64,000 nt of DNA from Escherichia coli O157 typing phage 13, in the sequence record KP869111. One strand, 5' to 3'. A program made the translations under genes and the position numbers. This document shows positions 18,988 through 61,970 of the stretch, in pieces; the first letter of the stretch is position 1; each line of letters begins with the position of its first letter. The notes under the pieces are model-generated. The model made no database searches, had not been told where the DNA came from, and saw only the letters and a list, made by a program, of their open reading frames with translations.

Positions 18988-20639
18988 GTAATAACAATAC
19001 ATACCAACACGTTTCAAACGAATCCATTTACGTTGAATTCGACCCTACGGGGTCGAATTTTCCAGATACAGTCACTAATGTCCAAGCCGCATTAGCTGCT
19101 ATTTCTCCTTCAGGTGTTAATGGTGTACCGGAAGCAACAACTACTACACCAGGAATTATTCAAATAGCTACTCCACAAGAAGTTATTGATGGACTAGATA
19201 ATAGTAAAGCTGTTACTCCGGCATCACTGAATGCTCGTCTACAATATCCTAATGCAACCGAAACTCAATATGGCTTAACTCGTTATGCTACTGAAGATGA
19301 AGCAGTAACAGGAACTATTGACGATGCATCAATTACTCCGCTTAAATTGAATCAAAAAATAGACAATGTATTCCAGACAAAAGTGTCAACAGAAGCATCA
19401 AATGGTGTAATTAAAATTTCGACTTCTGCTGCGGCATTAGCCGGTTCTGACGATACGACGGCAATGACTCCGTTAAAAACGCAACAATTGGCAATTAAAC
19501 TTATTTCGCAAATTGCTCCAAATAATAGTGACGCCACTGAATCTATTACCGGTGTTGTTCGTTTGGCTACAGTTGCTCAAGCGCAACAAGGCACCCTGCG
19601 TGAAGGCTATGCAATTTCACCTTATACCTTTATGAATTCAGTAGCATCAGAAACTAATAAAGGTGTCGTTAAACTAGGGACACAGACTGAAGTAAATAGT
19701 AACAACTCTTCAGTTGTAGTGACCGGCGCAACATTAAACGNNNNNNNNNNNNNNNNNNNNNNNNNNNNNNNNNNNNNNNNNNNNNNNNNNNNNNNNNNNN
19801 NNNNNNNNNNNNNNCGTGGGGCTACAACTTCTTTACGTGGAGTTGTTCGTTTAACTACACAAGCTGGTAGCCAATCAGGTGGTGATGGTTCTTCTGCCCT
19901 TGCTTGGAATGCTGATGTTATCCACCAACGAGGCGGACAAACTATTAATGGCACGCTTCGCATTAATAATACGTTGACTGTTGGTTCTGGTGGCGCTAAT
20001 ATAACGGGTAATGTCAATATGACCGGTGGTTATATTCAAGGCAATCGTATTGTGACTCAAAATGAATTAGACCGAATTCTCCCAGTTGGCGCTATTACAA
20101 TGTGGGCTGCAGATAGTTTACCGAGTTCTGACTGGCGCTTCTGTCACGGTGGGACCGTTTCTGCTTCAGAATGTCCGGTATATGCTTCCAGAATTGGGAC
20201 ACGATATGGCGGTAGTTCTTCTAACCCAGGCTTGCCTGATATGCGTGGATTATTTGTTCGCGGCTCAGGTCGTGGCTCTCACTTAACAAATCCAAATGTT
20301 AATGGTAATGACCAGTTTGGTAAGCCTAGATTAGGTGTAGGTTGTACCGGTGGATATGTCGGTGAAGTGCAAAAACAACAGATGTCATATCATAAGCATG
20401 CTGGCGGTTTTGGTGAACATGATGATTCTGGAGCATTCGGTAATACCCGTAGATCAAATTTTGTTGGTACACGTAAAGGACTTGACTGGGATAACCGTTC
20501 ATACTTCACCAATGACGGATATGAAATTGACCCGGCATCACAACGAAATTCCAAATATACATTAAATCGTCCTGAATTAATTGGAAATGAAACACGTCCA
20601 TGGAACATTTCTTTAAACTATATCATTAAGGTAAAATAA
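18984..20639 (+). CDS. 12: gp12 short tail fiber
   Basis: 551 aa; contains masked N-run but frame is preserved; conserved C-terminal receptor-binding region. Confidence 0.85.
19741..19814. other. run of N (masked/undetermined bases) inside gene 12
   Basis: 74 N; ORF continues in frame. Confidence 0.95.
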
Positions 20640-44372: not shown

Positions 44373-45125
44373 ATGGCTAATATAATTCGTTGTAAATTAC
44401 CGGATGGTGTTCATCGTTTTAAGCCGTTCACTGTGGCGGATTATAGAGACTTTTTACTAGTTAGAAATGATATCGAACATCGTTCGCCGCAAGAACAAAA
44501 AGAAATAATTGCCGATCTGATTGATGATTATTTTGGCGAGTACCCTAAAACATGGCAACCATTTATATTCCTGCAAGTTTTTGCAGGCTCTATAGGCAAA
44601 ACAAAAGTTCCCGTTATTTTCACTTGCCCTAAATGCTCTAAAGAAAAAACTGCACCATTTGAGATATATCAAAAAGAACTAGTCGAACCTGAACTTGATG
44701 TTGCTGGTATAAAAATACGTTTTTCTTTCCCTGAAAAGTTTTATGACAATAAAGCATTAATGATAAGTGAAAACATAAAAGAAATATATTATAATGATGA
44801 ATGGTACCCATGGAATGATTTGACTGAAGAGAACCAAATCCAAGTAATAGAAGCAATAGACATTGACTCGCTCGAGAAGGTTATTGCTTCTATGAATCCT
44901 ATTAATTTGACCCTTAGATTAGGTTGTTGTGAACGTCATGTTAAAACATACACTGATATCTTAGAGGTTTTTAAATTGTTAGTTAACCCTGATGAGATTT
45001 TTACATTCTATCAGATAAACCATTCACTAGTAAAGAGTCAATACACATTGGATTCTATTATGCAAATGATTCCTGTTGAACGTGGTATTGCTTTAACATT
45101 AGTAGAAAAGGACCATAAAAAATGA
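44373..45125 (+). CDS. 51: gp51 baseplate hub assembly catalyst
   Basis: 250 aa; synteny. Confidence 0.85.
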
Positions 45126-56750: not shown

Positions 56751-56868
56751 NNNNNNNNNNNNNNNNNNNNNNNNNNNNNNNNNNNNNNNNNNNNNNNNNN
56801 NNNNNNNNNNNNNNNNNNNNNNNNNNNNNNNNNNNNNNNNNNNNNNNNNNNNNNNNNNNNNNNNNNNN
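56751..56868. other. run of N (masked/undetermined bases)
   Basis: 118 N. Confidence 0.95.
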
Positions 56869-56884: not shown

Positions 56885-57499
56885 CTACTTAACGAAATTA
56901 ATTTCTACCGGATGAACGACAGGTTGAGCAGTGATATATTGAGTAATTGCTTTCATGACTAGAGCTTCAGAACCAGGATTTTTCTCAACGAATTCACGTG
57001 CTTGGTTATGAGCTTCAAGTTCACTTAGTAAACCACTTCGTTGGCATCCACGGTCTTGAGTACCCTGTTCAGATAAAAAGACGACGATGTATTTTTCATC
57101 GTCATACGGTTTAGACGGTTGAGCAAATGTTCCTTTACTTCCGAAAGGAGAGTTATGACGCCACATATCGCCGTGAGGAGTTTCAACCTTCGTATATTCG
57201 TGCGGGCCATTTTTCTTAATTTCTTGATGTGGAACTTCATAGATCTTAGGGTTAGGACATTCAATAAAATGCTCATCTAAATCAGTCGAGAATATTAAAG
57301 TAAAACAATTACTGAATTTACCGACACCTGCCTGATAAATTTTACCTTCAGAAGTTCTAATTTCACAAACTGAGCCGGCATCAGTAACTTCTAAAACTTC
57401 AAAAGGCTCGATAAGGTCATATGAGAACATGTTTTTAAGGCGTGGAGTAATATCCCCATTTTTAAAATTCATTTTATAAAAAGTATTAACTTTAAACAT
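56885..57499 (-). CDS. hypothetical protein (204 aa)
   Basis: Long ORF with GAGGAA RBS. Confidence 0.65.
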   Translation of the reverse strand: MFKVNTFYKMNFKNGDITPRLKNMFSYDLIEPFEVLEVTDAGSVCEIRTSEGKIYQAGVGKFSNCFTLIFSTDLDEHFIECPNPKIYEVPHQEIKKNGPHEYTKVETPHGDMWRHNSPFGSKGTFAQPSKPYDDEKYIVVFLSEQGTQDRGCQRSGLLSELEAHNQAREFVEKNPGSEALVMKAITQYITAQPVVHPVEINFVK

Positions 57500-57511
57500 A
57501 ATTTCCTCAGT

Positions 57512-57527
57512 GGGAGCCGAAGCTCCC
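57512..57527 (-). promoter_or_regulatory. intercistronic hairpin GGGAGC-CGAA-GCUCCC just upstream of the RBS of the 204-aa ORF
   Basis: Perfect 6-bp stem; no U-tract, so not a canonical terminator. Confidence 0.45.
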
Positions 57528-57534
57528 AGTTAAA

Positions 57535-57900
57535 TTAGATATCAAATTCATTAAGAACTACATCAAAGATTGCTTCAAGATGTTCAGGTTTAGCTCGATG
57601 ACTCAGGATATGACGAATCCAAGTTTTAACCAGAAGTTCACGATTATCACCATTCCAGCAAGGATGAGTACCTAAATCGCGCTGACGGAAATCATCATCT
57701 AATGCAATTTTAAAATTTGAACCTTCCATCGTGATTGAAACCGTGATGCCATTTTCAAATCGCATATAAACGTAATTAGGAGTCATGCACTGTTCGATTT
57801 CACAAACTGTACCGTTTTCGTGTTTCCATAAGCAAATAACTTCAGAAGAACCAGCGATACCGTTAGAAACATATTTACGTTCGAAGTTGATGTAGTTCAT
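57535..57900 (-). CDS. hypothetical protein (121 aa), possible paralog of the next ORF
   Basis: Own early promoter; shared CMTP motif with adjacent ORF. Confidence 0.65.
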   Translation of the reverse strand: MNYINFERKYVSNGIAGSSEVICLWKHENGTVCEIEQCMTPNYVYMRFENGITVSITMEGSNFKIALDDDFRQRDLGTHPCWNGDNRELLVKTWIRHILSHRAKPEHLEAIFDVVLNEFDI

Positions 57901-57928
57901 TTTATTCTCCGGATGTTTAAGTTGTTTG

Positions 57929-57970
57929 TTGGTACAGGTCTATAATAACATAACCTGTACCAAAGTAAAC
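57929..57970 (-). promoter_or_regulatory. early promoter (GTTTAC - 17 nt - TATTAT) with perfect 10-bp inverted repeat TTGGTACAGG/CCTGTACCAA flanking the -10
   Basis: Inverted repeat 57929-57938 and 57954-57963 with the -10 in the 15-bp spacer. Confidence 0.55.
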
Positions 57971-57974
57971 TGTT

Positions 57975-58343
57975 TTATGCAACTTTAATCCAATTGTCTA
58001 AATTTAAAACACCTTTGGCTTTCATTTTTTCGATCAGGTTATCTGCTGTAATGCGTCCATTTTGATACCATGTAACATCTTCAGAGTAACCAGTTTCTTC
58101 GTCAACATATGTTTCTGAACGAATTTTACCGGTAATAATAGTTTTTAATTCGTATGTGTCACCTGTGAAAAAGTTTGCTAACACAATTTTCCAAGAGAAA
58201 TCATTTGAAGGACCTTCAGGGGTCATACAACTTACGAACTCAAATTGCTCTTTGTATAACATCCACTGGAATTCTTTAATTTCGATAGCTTTATAACCGT
58301 CGTGGTCTTTACATTTGATGTATGAGTTCAGATTGATTTTCAT
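57975..58343 (-). CDS. hypothetical protein (122 aa)
   Basis: Own early promoter and conserved leader CCGGAGAATAAAATG shared with downstream cassette. Confidence 0.65.
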   Translation of the reverse strand: MKINLNSYIKCKDHDGYKAIEIKEFQWMLYKEQFEFVSCMTPEGPSNDFSWKIVLANFFTGDTYELKTIITGKIRSETYVDEETGYSEDVTWYQNGRITADNLIEKMKAKGVLNLDNWIKVA

Positions 58344-58384
58344 TTTATTCTCCGGTTGTTTTATTGATTAGGTGGTACAAGTCT

Positions 58385-58413
58385 ATAGTAACACATCCTA
58401 CAGGAGAGTAAAC
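58385..58413 (-). promoter_or_regulatory. T4-type early promoter (GTTTAC - 17 nt - TACTAT)
   Basis: Consensus-like elements upstream of ATG at 58343. Confidence 0.55.
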
Positions 58414-58449
58414 ATCTTTTTAATCTTTTTCTGCCCTAAACGCACAAAA

Positions 58450-58467
58450 GGGAGACCGAAGTCTCCC
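58450..58467 (-). terminator. hairpin GGGAGAC-UUCG-GUCUCCC followed by UUUUG (minus strand)
   Basis: Perfect 7-bp stem immediately after stop of the small basic ORF. Confidence 0.6.
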
Positions 58468-58472
58468 TAAAA

Positions 58473-58652
58473 TTATGCAACAACCTTTCCAAAACGAGAA
58501 GCATCATCTCGAAGAACTGCACGTGCTCTGCGCATGATCTTCTCAACTGTTTGATTAATACGAGAGTTCGACCCACGCTTGTATCCAGCGCGTTTAGAGG
58601 TACCATCAACTTTCTTTTCAACTGCTTTCTTTGCTTTAGCTTGTTTTGCCAT
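58473..58652 (-). CDS. small basic protein (59 aa, K/R-rich)
   Basis: ATG-initiated ORF MAKQAKAKKAVEKK... ending before the terminator hairpin; preferred over TTG-initiated track ORF 58436..58621. Confidence 0.5.
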   Translation of the reverse strand: MAKQAKAKKAVEKKVDGTSKRAGYKRGSNSRINQTVEKIMRRARAVLRDDASRFGKVVA

Positions 58653-58808
58653 TATAAATTCTCTTTAAATGAAAATGCAGGACTTATTGACATTGCCTGC
58701 GCAAGCCCTCAAGGGGAACATAGGTTTTGGATATTTAACGACAGGATAACCATAAACCCGTCATCATACCAACCACGACTTAGACAGATAACCTTTTTCT
58801 GACGCGTG

Positions 58809-59992: not shown

Positions 59993-60563
59993 AAAAGTTT
60001 CGGATTTGTTCCCAATTCAGAGAACGAAGATTATTACGAGAGTACTGAATTACTTCAATACCGGCTTGTTTTAGAATGTCTGCCCAATTTTCAGGAGATC
60101 TGTCATATAATTCTGCGTATACAACCTTTTTAATACCTGACTGTGTAATAGCTTTAGTGCAATCAGGACATGGAGAAAGTGTCGTATACAACGTAGCACC
60201 TTCAATAGAATTACCTTTACGAGCTGCAAACAAAATTGCATTCAGTTCCGCATGGATTTCGTTATTAGCGGACCATGCACTATGAGCAGCCCGATGTTCT
60301 TTAGCCAAAACAAAATTATCCACCCGTCCAAATGCTGTAGTGCCTTCTTTATGCCCAGCAACGATGACCGGGCTTGGTTTATTCTTCAACCAACCGTTTT
60401 CGGATGCATGTTCACAACAGTTAACACCACCGGCCGGGCTACCGTTATACCCAGTAGAGATAATGCGTCCATCTTTTTCAATGACGGCACCAACTTTCCA
60501 TGAACAACATTTTGATTCTTGAGAAATCAAATAAGCAATTTGAAGATATGTGCTAGCTTTCAT
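59982..60563 (-). CDS. cd: dCMP deaminase
   Basis: 193 aa; zinc-binding motifs HAELNAI and PCPDC. Confidence 0.95.
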   Translation of the reverse strand: MKASTYLQIAYLISQESKCCSWKVGAVIEKDGRIISTGYNGSPAGGVNCCEHASENGWLKNKPSPVIVAGHKEGTTAFGRVDNFVLAKEHRAAHSAWSANNEIHAELNAILFAARKGNSIEGATLYTTLSPCPDCTKAITQSGIKKVVYAELYDRSPENWADILKQAGIEVIQYSRNNLRSLNWEQIRNFCGE

Positions 60564-61555
60564 TATTGAACCTTATTAATATAAGTTAACAGCTCTTTAG
60601 TTTGTTCCCAACTGATGCACGCATCGGTAACGGAAACGCCATAGGACATATTATCAGAAATTTTTTGATTTCCTTCATGTAGGAATGATTCTATCATAAT
60701 TCCTTTGACCAAATCATTAGCTGCTAAATTTTTACCAATACCAATTTGATTGCTATAATGCCCATCAGCGTTTGCATGGCTACAGTCAACCATTACATAA
60801 TGATTCAGACCTACTGCCCTTGCTTTGTTAGAAGCTTCTTGAATATCAGAAGAATGATAGTTCGGGCCGTTGGTCCCGCCACGCAATACGATATGCGTAT
60901 TCTGATTACCTTCAGCTTCAACAATGCCTACAGTACCATCGACGTCCATACCCATATACCGATGAGGCCAGGCGGCACTATACATCGCGTCTGTAGCTAC
61001 TTTAATAGAACCATTGGTTGCGTTCTTGAAGCCTACGCACATCGGTAGACCTGAAGCAATTTCACGATGTGTCTGACTTTCAGTCGTACGGGCGCCAATA
61101 GCAACCCATGAGAAAATACCAGAAAGATACTTAATCGTGAATGGGTCTAATACTTCAGTTGCTAATGGAAGTCCCATACGTAGAAGTTTACGACACAATG
61201 TTCGTGCAACTATAAGACCGTGGTTCATATCAAAACTTCCGTCAAGATATGGATCATTTACAAGACCTTTCCAACCTACGGTAGTTCGAGGCTTTTCAAA
61301 ATAAACGCGCATCACTAACAGAACATTAGGAAGACGAGTTTGAAGTTCAGCCAGACGTTTGCCGTATTCAACAGCAGCAATAGGGTCATGAATTGAACAA
61401 GGACCTACAACAATAAGTTTGCGTGGGTCTTCACCGTTCATAATCGAATTAACTTGTTCGCGATGAGAAGCCACTTGTGATGCGTAAGCTTCCGACAAAG
61501 GAATAATCTCAGCCAGTTCTTTTGGAGAAATAAGTTTTCCGACGACAGGTAACAT
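60563..61555 (-). CDS. 3-deoxy-D-arabino-heptulosonate 7-phosphate (DAHP) synthase, class I (AroG-like)
   Basis: 330 aa; collinear with E. coli AroG from memory; KPRTTVGWKGL motif and metal ligands C (GPCSIHDP), H (DCSHAN), E (ESFLHEGNQ), D (SVTDACI); stop overlaps cd start. Confidence 0.9.
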   Translation of the reverse strand: MLPVVGKLISPKELAEIIPLSEAYASQVASHREQVNSIMNGEDPRKLIVVGPCSIHDPIAAVEYGKRLAELQTRLPNVLLVMRVYFEKPRTTVGWKGLVNDPYLDGSFDMNHGLIVARTLCRKLLRMGLPLATEVLDPFTIKYLSGIFSWVAIGARTTESQTHREIASGLPMCVGFKNATNGSIKVATDAMYSAAWPHRYMGMDVDGTVGIVEAEGNQNTHIVLRGGTNGPNYHSSDIQEASNKARAVGLNHYVMVDCSHANADGHYSNQIGIGKNLAANDLVKGIMIESFLHEGNQKISDNMSYGVSVTDACISWEQTKELLTYINKVQ

Positions 61556-61940: not shown

Positions 61941-61970
61941 ATAGTATCACAACTCCACCATGTTGTAAAC
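61941..61970 (-). promoter_or_regulatory. T4-type early promoter (GTTTAC - 18 nt - TGTGATACTAT)
   Basis: Consensus-like elements upstream of ATG at 61912. Confidence 0.6.

Follow-up and report, generated by a model that had tools for sequence, protein, structure and literature searches.

Tandem early promoter-leader cassettes upstream of genes 30.8 and 30.7 of a T4-like coliphage, with a probable RNA hairpin around one of their promoters

Two small neighbouring genes of Escherichia coli O157 typing phage 13 (KP869111) lie behind closely similar upstream sequences, one of which carries a perfect inverted repeat around its -10 element. The question raised by this locus is what has been repeated here, genes or regulatory sequence, and at which level the inverted repeat acts. 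A stretch of 64,000 nucleotides, the window, was analysed. The locus lies on the minus strand and consists of two tandem small early open reading frames (ORFs) of 122 and 121 aa in a T4-like coliphage (Mosigvirus). An earlier sequence-only reading had taken them for a promoter-plus-gene unit that was duplicated and then diverged.

In the direction of transcription, all on the minus strand, the locus begins upstream of both cassettes with the homologue of gene 30.9 (58473..58652, 59 aa), an ORF assigned to phrog_1427 and named 30.9 in phage ATK47. It is followed by a terminator-type hairpin (58445..58468), read from the sequence as GGGAGAC-UUCG-GUCUCCC and then UUUU, which is just upstream of the promoter of 30.8, 32 nt 5' of its -35; the ATK47 annotation has a terminator (ARNold) at the equivalent position, and T4 is arranged alike. 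Then come cassette copy 2 (58339..58413), the gene 30.8 homologue (57975..58343, 122 aa, Pfam PF06019), cassette copy 1 (57896..57970) and the gene 30.7 homologue (57535..57900, 121 aa, Pfam PF06919, E=1.1e-51). A UUCG-tetraloop hairpin that has no U-tract (57511..57528) sits between the 30.7 stop codon and the Shine-Dalgarno sequence of the next ORF (56885-57499), abutting both; it is a Rho-independent terminator in the ATK47 annotation and is listed by the terminator scan of the window. Both cassettes thus lie in intergenic gaps of a variable (hyperplastic) region whose small early ORFs are co-oriented, and the gene content beside 30.7 varies between genera. An Rfam search of 57300-58800 gave nothing near any gathering score, and the T4 GenBank records NC_000866 and AF158101 have no promoter annotation at 30.7 or 30.8. 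Literature searches on gp30.7/gp30.8 and on 30.7/30.8/30.9/rIII found nothing relevant, and one for T4 start-site and terminator RNA-seq gave other phages only.

The upstream regions are paralogous, as had been claimed: they form a direct repeat (family D1; 57896-57970 and 58339-58413) of 75 nt at 79% identity and are copies of one promoter-leader unit. This unit is composed of a GTTTAC-N17-TAnTAT early promoter, preceded by A-rich sequence, a leader and a GGAG Shine-Dalgarno sequence, and in both copies it ends in CCGGAGAATAAAATG, which holds the Shine-Dalgarno sequence and the start codon. In copy 2, the promoter found by pattern match, P30.8 (58385..58413), has the -35 GTTTAC at 58408-58413, a 17-nt spacer ending in TGT and the -10 TACTAT at 58385-58390, followed by the leader, GGAG at 58350-58353 and the ATG of 30.8. 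In copy 1, P30.7 (57942..57970) has the -35 GTTTAC at 57965-57970, a 17-nt spacer ending in TGT and the -10 TATTAT at 57942-57947, and the copy also comprises the hairpin, the leader, GGAG at 57907-57910 and the ATG of 30.7. Both promoters are early-type (-35 GTTTAC), with neither a late TATAAATA box nor a MotA box; their activity and start sites are predicted from the match to the consensus. Other early-type promoters in the window reach ungapped pairwise identities of 0.25-0.64, a slightly unfair control since most of them have an 18-nt spacer. The pattern GTTTAC-N16-18-TANNNT-N6-GTAC occurs in the window at these two sites only (0.01 expected), and the motif TATAGACYTGTACCA, searched over the whole window with up to two mismatches, was found at the two cassette sites and at no others, so it is not a genome-wide binding site. 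The 30.8 promoter of T4 is unlike its 30.7 promoter, and the P30.7 promoter is kept in T4 and at all 30.7 loci examined except a Seunavirus locus (L024).

If the whole promoter-plus-gene unit had been duplicated in tandem, gp30.7 and gp30.8 would be highly diverged paralogues, which agrees with their similar lengths (121 and 122 aa), with the 79% identity of their upstream regions and with a CMTP motif in an equivalent place, at residues 38-41 of the 121-aa ORF and 39-42 of the 122-aa ORF. The predicted models of both proteins, with an N-terminal beta-meander and then C-terminal helices, might be counted on the same side; a fold search with the AlphaFold model of gp30.7 (pLDDT 66.9) gave no informative match. 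However, gp30.7 is a full-length match to PF06919 (174 bits against a gathering cut-off of 27) and gp30.8 to PF06019 (148.8 bits against 25). Pairwise alignment of the proteins, the check that had been proposed, gave no support for common descent: BLASTP aligned the CMTP stretch only (5/8 identities, E=0.13), and profile-profile comparison of PF06919 and PF06019 proteins with hhalign gave a probability of 0.1%. CMTP itself is replaced by YMTP in T4 gp30.7 and by Y/F-W-E-D in most other 30.7 homologues and is not present in T4 gp30.8. By their profile matches, gp30.8 and gp30.7 belong to different, unrelated Pfam families, no evidence of paralogy was found, and duplication of the genes is quite improbable. 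The repeated unit is a regulatory cassette of approximately 75 nt only, not the genes. For annotation, this means that similarity between upstream regions in T4-like genomes should not be taken as a sign of gene duplication.

With one direct-repeat copy on either side of 30.8, the cassettes would allow its excision or insertion, and recombination or gene conversion may keep the copies alike. Three related Klebsiella-type phages (L037, L023 and L038) were compared in this respect. L037 has the order terminator-Pa-30.8-ORF170-Pb-30.7, and L023 and L038 have one chimeric Pa/Pb cassette immediately 5' of 30.7, with two different chimeric junctions, one within the shared GTTACTATAGACYTGTACCACCCAAAC block and the other in GGAGAATAAAA. 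Judging by these gene orders and junctions, recombination between cassettes is what removed or inserted 30.8 in this group. Phages of the L003 type have two leaders that are near-identical 3' of the -10 yet unlike the window leaders, and this homogenisation indicates concerted evolution. Such promoter-leader cassettes are reusable, travelling with unrelated ORFs and mediating their gain and loss, and the direct repeats around 30.8 predict a spontaneous-deletion hot spot of concern to phage engineering and therapy genomes.

The inverted repeat of copy 1 had been given as a perfect 10-bp repeat with a 15-bp spacer; it is real and perfect, but has 11-bp arms separated by 13 nt (57929-57939 and 57953-57963; TTGGTACAGGT / ACCTGTACCAA). 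The 5' arm TTGGTACAGGT (57953..57963, minus strand) is within the -35/-10 spacer of P30.7, and the 3' arm ACCTGTACCAA (57929..57939, minus strand) begins 2 nt past the -10 and spans the predicted start site; both are defined by fold and covariation, and they bracket the -10 (57942-57947) as described. Only three perfect inverted repeats with arms of 11 bp or more and loops of up to 30 nt occur in the window, whereas 20 first-order Markov simulations averaged 0.3. The RNA fold of the 43-nt segment has an energy of -17.9 kcal/mol (z = -4.8), which 0 of 200 shuffles match. The second cassette was rightly said to lack the repeat: it has only the 3' arm-like AGACTTGTACCA, a fold z of -0.23, a stem score of 4.5 and no significant embedded hairpin. 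In the window hairpin, the 3' arm ends 18 nt 5' of GGAG, and the fold leaves the Shine-Dalgarno sequence unpaired. The hairpin has a 13-nt loop and no U-tract in its 3' flank (CAACAAAC), and it is absent from the terminator scan; a canonical intrinsic terminator is ruled out by the missing U-tract and by G-C pairs making up only 5 of the 11.

Hairpins were found upstream of 30.7 in other T4-like genera, with the arms GGTGAGAGTCT / AGACTCTCACC in Erwinia phage Gravdalen, TTGGTGTAAGAGTA / TACTCTTACACCAA in Klebsiella kv_tblp2, GCTGATTGAGTGT / ACACTCAATCAGC in Kosakonia 305, CTCCGTTGTAT / ATACAACGGAG in Moon and myPSH1140, CTCCGTTAGTTG / CAACTAACGGAG in CkP1, and CTCCGAGGTTT / AAACCTCGGAG in L039. 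The 5' arm begins 2-4 nt past GTTTAC in all of them and in the window. Across distant genera, the arm sequences are entirely different, while pairing and position upstream of 30.7 are kept. Among 11 in-register sequences, 92.7% of cells are paired, against 33-44% with the partner slid by 1-3 columns; this column-wise count left out the Kosakonia-type and Moon-type hairpins, whose 3' arms are out of register. Changes on both sides (compensatory) are found at 6 of 13 pairs, and none of 500 shuffles reaches the observed covariation score, although with only some three lineages behind the 11 sequences the shuffle control overstates significance, and sliding is the fairer control. One-sided changes, independent in all four cases, give G·U in the sense RNA, by A>G in L028, L029 and L036 and by C>T in L010. 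In Moon, CkP1, myPSH1140 and L039, and likewise at T4 P30.8, the Shine-Dalgarno sequence falls within the 3' arm. P30.8 of the window has no such hairpin, and some Jiaodavirus phages (L023 and L038) also lack it, so that not every context requires it.

Embedded hairpins also occur at other early promoters of the same genome, where they have unrelated arms. Among 37 GTTTAC-N16-18-TANNNT sites of the window and 100 kb of T4, 11 reach a spacer-to-downstream stem score of 8 or more, against 1 expected when spacers and downstream regions were swapped between promoters; allowing for orthologous and duplicated promoters, the 11 represent about 8 independent families. In these 11 promoter hairpins, admitting sense-strand G·U adds 18 pairs and admitting A·C adds 3. 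No preference of embedded hairpins for promoters that lack an upstream terminator emerged (1/11 against 3/17), with a crude detector that missed at least one real terminator, the known one after 30.9. A functionless repeat, arising as a chance palindrome or as a by-product of the promoter consensus, could be argued from the extended consensus of T4 early promoters, which includes TATAGAC and CAACAA past the -10, and from P30.8, which does without a hairpin. Such a repeat is scarcely credible given an expectation of only 0.3 per window, a fold z of -4.8, compensatory covariation across genera and an 11-fold enrichment over a swap control that preserves the consensus; the swap control and the covariation have effectively refuted it already.

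The proposal that the repeat is a site for a dimeric repressor, of phage or host, which would bind the double-stranded operator across the -10 and shut off P30.7, has geometry in its favour, with perfect 11-bp half-sites on either side of the -10, and T4 early promoters are indeed shut off a few minutes post-infection (Hinton, 2010). The half-sites, however, are neither conserved among relatives nor common to the early promoters of one genome. Arms are wholly replaced in other genera, with pairing, position and downstream gene kept, and no single repressor could read all hairpins because arms are unrelated between early promoters of one genome. Single changes produce G·T wobbles, which break the palindrome, and never A·C, an asymmetry without meaning for a duplex palindrome, and the 20-30 nt downstream shift of the 3' arm onto the Shine-Dalgarno sequence in several orthologues would make no sense for an operator. 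The review of Hinton (2010) names no sequence-specific repressor of T4 early promoters. An operator, already disfavoured on these grounds, is highly improbable. The other option that had been offered, an RNA structure at the transcript 5' end, is the better of the two, except that the 5' arm is in the -35/-10 spacer, upstream of the predicted start.

A hairpin acting in DNA, as a cruciform or in single strands, might switch the promoter in response to supercoiling, or might be a recombination hot spot and actively mobilise the cassette, for instance as the target of a structure-specific nuclease. Recombination junctions do lie in or beside the shared promoter/stem-loop block, the -10 is in the loop, where a cruciform would affect promoter melting, and Arbiol et al. 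(2010) placed one mini-circle crossover within the loop of a stem-loop and left the involvement of a recombinase open. Nevertheless, the sense-strand G·T bias means A·C mismatches on the complementary strand, which would destabilise a cruciform, and extrusion from stems as short as 8-14 bp is unlikely. The second cassette recombines without a hairpin, plain cassette homology explains the junctions, and the orthologues with the 3' arm over the Shine-Dalgarno sequence point to a function in RNA. Action at the DNA level is therefore considered unlikely.

The repeat is very likely a selected sense-strand structure of the kind described in promoter-early stem-loop (PeSL) cassettes, rather than an operator. 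The locus as a whole is probably made of two consecutive early cassettes of this kind, with the 30.7 repeat working as an RNA hairpin that insulates 30.7 from upstream transcription. Each cassette would provide a strong sigma-70 early promoter (GTTTAC, 17 nt ending in TGn, TAnTAT) and a short GGAG leader for one small gene. As the 5' arm is upstream of 30.7's own predicted start site, the layout indicates that the hairpin would form in read-through transcripts. RNA initiated at P30.7 would lack the 5' arm and could not fold it, since the 5' arm is in the promoter spacer and the 3' arm lies across the start site; RNA reading through from P30.8 or from further upstream would fold it. The likeliest role is insulation, which would leave expression of 30.7 to the promoter of that gene. 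In Moon-, Karam- and related phages and at T4 P30.8, the 3' arm on the Shine-Dalgarno sequence would act by the classical T4 mechanism of genes e, soc, 49 and I-TevI. At 30.7 of the window, the molecular effect, which we infer from the sequence together with start sites, read-through and termination, must differ from Shine-Dalgarno sequestration because the 3' arm stops 18 nt before GGAG; it may be attenuation or termination, which Arbiol et al. (2010) showed for one PeSL stem-loop. Another candidate effect is that the hairpin defines or protects an RNA end once the transcript has been processed. Processing by RNase III is rejected, since its typical substrates have stems longer than the 8-14 bp seen here.

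A wider proposal is possible, although rather doubtful: hairpins with a 5' arm hidden in the spacer could form a layer of early-gene control that is general to Tevenvirinae and under selection, present at about one-third of strong early promoters in two interchangeable modes, with the 3' arm at the start site or on the Shine-Dalgarno sequence, so that each small early gene answers only to its own promoter. The start-site mode would then operate by an uncharacterised mechanism, either U-tract-independent attenuation or RNA-end definition or protection linked with cutting of the GGAG leader by RegB or RNase E. If true, a conserved post-transcriptional insulator within T-even early promoters would extend the PeSL picture.

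PeSLs are cassettes of T4-type phages described in RB49 and phi1 (Arbiol et al., 2010; PMC2839356) and in PST/T4 and nt-1/KVP40, where the early promoter of PST/T4 is given as TTTACW-N17-TAYWAT (Comeau et al., 2014; PMC4122927). They are intergenic cassettes of approximately 75-100 nt between small early ORFs of hyperplastic regions, repeated in the genome and composed of an AT-rich upstream part, a strong sigma-70-type promoter, a stem-loop, a Shine-Dalgarno sequence and a start codon, and an ORF flanked by neighbouring copies is deleted or inserted when these recombine. The present locus likewise has the intergenic site, the promoter consensus with AT-rich upstream sequence, the Shine-Dalgarno sequence and start codon at the 3' end and recombining repeats; its stem-loops are the 30.7 stem spanning the -10 and, for the 30.8 cassette, the terminator hairpin upstream of the -35. 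These papers already describe phi1/RB49 stem-loops that overlap the -10 box and contain G-T pairs, and report a test of terminator activity for one RB49-type stem-loop (PMC2839356). The architecture has thus been published as the PeSL (Arbiol et al., 2010), and we infer its action at this locus.

The differences concern the stem. In the 2014 paper, stem-loops of T4/PST are placed just upstream of the promoter, whereas here and at T4 P30.7 the stem spans the -10, and the window stem is not of the polyG/polyC terminator-like type and has no U-tract. The PeSL papers see the stem-loops mainly as terminators and recombination substrates, and the passages cited do not describe covariation across genera or the shift of the 3' arm between start site and Shine-Dalgarno sequence. 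The covariation reported above, a comparative line of evidence separate from the original PeSL work, argues for selection on the embedded stem-loops as sense-strand structures. Rho-independent terminators share the position of an intergenic stem-loop between co-oriented genes, but the hairpin here has a stem of moderate GC content, no U-tract and a 13-nt loop that holds the -10 box.

The embedded stem-loops are also tied to a long-known T4 device for regulation, the promoter inside an inhibitory hairpin of genes e, soc, 49 and I-TevI (Uzan and Miller, 2010; PMC3014915), in which transcripts from upstream promoters alone can fold and those from the proximal promoter escape. At 30.7, the 5' strand is likewise upstream of the start site of the proximal promoter, as placed from the -10; the 3' strand leaves the Shine-Dalgarno/AUG region free in the window and covers it in the Moon, CkP1, myPSH1140 and L039 cassettes and at T4 P30.8. 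The internal promoter of the T4 genes is late (or middle), making their hairpin a temporal control, whereas both promoters here are early-type. The locus adds no new principle to these systems; its value is that of a clean testable example, in which changes to the arms can leave the -35 and -10 hexamers intact.

Every gene of the 30.9-30.8-30.7 locus is carried on the minus strand, and the 1.3 kb around both cassettes shares 100% identity with Escherichia coli O157 typing phages 3 and 6 and 98% with other Mosigvirus (RB69-like, T4-type) phages. In 5' to 3' order, gene 30.9 (58652-58473) is followed by a UUCG-tetraloop terminator hairpin with a GGGAG(A)C stem and a U-run (58468-58445; hairpin 58467-58450) that closes its unit, promoter P30.8 (58413-58385), gene 30.8 (58343-57975; 122 aa), promoter P30.7 (57970-57942), which contains the inverted repeat (arms 57963-57953 and 57939-57929), gene 30.7 (57900-57535; 121 aa), and a second UUCG hairpin with a GGGAG(A)C stem that closes the 30.7 unit (57528-57511). 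The last hairpin is without a U-tract and directly abuts the Shine-Dalgarno of the next ORF, yet the annotation of the related phage ATK47 lists it as a Rho-independent terminator. The next ORF (56885-57499, minus strand; 204 aa, phrog_17531) gave no match in a Pfam search and sits where T4 carries 30.6-30.4, confirming that the region is variable among T4-like phages. Three stretches of N (bases masked or not known) occur at 672-748, 19741-19814, and 56751-56868, the last lying approximately 20 nt past the stop of the 204-aa ORF and yielding an artefactual X-containing ORF. A 330-aa ORF adjoining dCMP deaminase (60563-61555, minus strand) is a DAHP synthase (AroG-like) according to the ATK47 annotation and resembles a host-type gene for aromatic amino-acid biosynthesis carried by a T4-like phage.

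The sequence-only reading had rightly described the two upstream regions as related; they form a 75-nt direct repeat with 79% identity, the copies being 443 nt apart. Both cassettes are T4-type early promoters with a -35 of GTTTAC, a 17-nt spacer ending in TGn, and a -10 of TATTAT or TACTAT, and both leaders end in CCGGAGAATAAAATG. The window has eight to ten such promoters against three expected, with a shared consensus after the -10 (e.g., TATAGAC and CAACAA), so the similarity is in part class consensus; however, the two cassettes are far more alike than any other promoter pair. GGAG is the Shine-Dalgarno in both leaders (57907-57910 and 58350-58353, minus strand), within CCGGAGAAUAAAAUG. 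The T4 endoribonuclease RegB cleaves at GGAG, which makes the 30.7 and 30.8 early mRNAs candidate RegB targets.

The same reading had proposed duplication of a whole promoter-plus-gene unit, and this part was not supported. The two ORFs do carry CMTP at nearly equal positions, but the 30.7 protein is a full-length PF06919 (Phage_T4_Gp30_7) and the 30.8 protein a full-length PF06019 (Phage_30_8), and they belong to separate PHROGs. In the pairwise protein alignment that had been proposed as a check, E..CMTP was the sole BLASTP similarity (E=0.13), and comparing a profile of 10 aligned 30.7 sequences with one of 18 aligned 30.8 sequences gave a probability of 0.1%. The CMTP position reads YMTP in T4 gp30.7 and Y/F-W-E-D in most other 30.7 homologues; the motif is absent from T4 gp30.8, and C-x-T-P conservation is confined to the 122-aa 30.8 subgroup. 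AlphaFold modelled 30.8 confidently, with eight to nine strands and one long helix (pLDDT 93.6); its 30.7 model, with five to six strands and two helices, is of low confidence (pLDDT 66.9). The two proteins may share a fold, but no evidence for paralogy was found in these comparisons; what recurs is the regulatory cassette.

The inverted repeat at P30.7 is perfect and lies at the -10 as described, with one pair more than reported (11 bp, 13-nt loop). The window contains three perfect inverted repeats of this size against 0.3 expected, and the 43-nt segment has a predicted folding energy of -17.9 kcal/mol (z = -4.8). The 30.8 cassette indeed lacks the repeat, having only a 3' arm-like sequence without a significant fold (z = -0.23). 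A perfect 12-bp inverted repeat with a 23-nt loop at 44847-44858 / 44882-44893 (ATAGAAGCAATA/TATTGCTTCTAT) lies within a 250-aa plus-strand ORF and not at a promoter.

Conservation was followed in 42 loci with 30.7 homologues (33-97% protein identity), giving 33 distinct upstream sequences. In nearly all of them, the stem begins 2-4 nt past GTTTAC and closes beyond the -10, while arm sequences differ wholly from genus to genus; what is conserved in the inverted repeat is its structure and not its sequence. Among 11 in-register sequences, 92.7% of cells are paired, against 33-44% with the 3' partner slid, and both-sided changes occur in six of 13 pairs; all four independent one-sided changes (loci L028, L029, L036, and L010) give a sense-strand G·U. 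In Moon, CkP1, myPSH1140, and loci L039 and L025, the 5' arm remains in the spacer and the 3' arm is displaced by 20-31 nt, so that it includes the Shine-Dalgarno GGAG. Outside Straboviridae, Cronobacter phage EspYZU12 (Vequintavirinae) encodes a gp30.7 homologue (33% identity) behind a TTGACA-type promoter, whose -10 region is flanked by an inverted repeat that is weak and only 6 bp long (GCCCTA/TAGGGC).

Embedded hairpins are a class feature of early promoters. Across 37 GTTTAC-N16-18-TANNNT sites in the window and 100 kb of T4, stems between spacer and downstream region scored ≥8 at 11, against one expected after exchanging spacers and downstream regions between promoters. The eleven include T4 dmd, dexA, cd.3, rnlA, alt.-3, an ndd-region ORF, 30.8, and 30.7, as well as window sites 61970 and 2512, and amount to approximately eight independent cases after allowing for orthologues and duplicates. 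Admitting sense-strand G·U extended these stems by 18 pairs, and admitting A·C (G·U on the other strand) by three. The promoters at 61941-61970 (GGTGGAGTT/AACTCTACC) and 2483-2512 (TTGATAGGGCT/AGTCCTATTAA), both on the minus strand, have hairpins across the -10 that are contiguous only with sense-strand G·U allowed. The former is possibly orthologous to the T4 cd.3 promoter (GGTAGAGTT/AGCTCTACC), the two hairpins differing only by wobble changes.

The geometry around the -10 had suggested either a dimeric repressor site or an RNA structure at the transcript 5' end. An operator for a duplex-binding repressor needs conserved half-sites, but these vary from genus to genus and among the promoters of a single genome, accept G·T but not A·C, and in some orthologues have one arm relocated onto the ribosome-binding site; a review of T4 prereplicative transcription names no sequence-specific early-promoter repressor (Hinton, 2010). 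The operator is thus not supported. The sense-strand wobble bias, arm turnover, and Shine-Dalgarno-covering variants instead favour an element that works as RNA in read-through transcripts. Contrary to the second of the two suggestions, it would not be formed in P30.7's own RNA, because the 5' arm sits between the -35 and -10 and is left out of RNA from a start predicted approximately 7 nt after the -10; the hairpin should fold only in RNA from P30.8 or further upstream. A terminator scan found none between P30.8 and P30.7, so read-through RNA is expected. Shine-Dalgarno-covering variants would produce the classical T4 effect, in which translation of upstream-initiated RNA is blocked, as for genes e, soc, 49, and I-TevI (Uzan and Miller, 2010, PMC3014915). 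In the window's variant, the Shine-Dalgarno is free in the fold and there is no U-tract; here the hairpin likely either attenuates read-through or defines and protects an RNA end.

The likeness of the two cassettes is lineage-specific: in T4 and loci L013-L015, the 30.8 promoter is unlike that of 30.7. In L003-type phages, both leaders are near-identical from the -10 to the ATG, yet unlike the window's leaders, which indicates concerted evolution by exchange between copies. Three IMG/VR contigs (L037, L023, and L038) have a 30.7 region matching the Jiaodavirus-type locus L023. L037 has the order terminator, Pa, 30.8, 170-aa ORF, Pb, 30.7, whereas L023 and L038 lack 30.8 and the 170-aa ORF (about 1 kb) and have a single chimeric Pa/Pb cassette immediately upstream of 30.7. 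The crossovers fall in a shared GTTACTATAGACYTGTACCACCCAAAC block in one and GGAGAATAAAA in the other, and the same GTTACTATAGACTTGTACCACC block is present in the window's P30.8. The two different junctions indicate that the flanking cassettes recombined independently at least twice. T4 promoters before rnlA and alt.-3 (17433 and 4190, approximately 13 kb apart) are near-identical over >50 nt (GTTTACAAGTCCCTCGTGTTGTGTTATAGTAGTCTTACT[G/A]ACATAACATGAGGA), each with a 13-bp hairpin whose 3' arm lies over the Shine-Dalgarno, and are another pair of dispersed cassette copies.

The best explanation is that of paired early cassettes of the promoter-early stem-loop (PeSL) type, with an RNA hairpin that would mark read-through transcripts. 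PeSLs resemble the window's cassettes in their AT-rich region, strong early promoter, stem-loop, Shine-Dalgarno, and ATG, and are repeated, recombinogenic, and tied to small ORFs in hyperplastic regions (Arbiol et al., 2010, PMC2839356; Comeau et al., 2014, PMC4122927). Read-through attenuation was measured for one PeSL stem-loop (Arbiol et al., 2010, PMC2839356). Comeau et al. (2014, PMC4122927) place the PST/T4 stem-loops just upstream of the promoter, which matches the 30.8 cassette but not the 30.7 cassette. This architecture makes the locus a further case of an already described kind, to which are added covariation across genera, two 3'-arm positions, a preference for wobble pairs on the sense strand, and concrete deletion junctions for the 30.8-30.7 locus.
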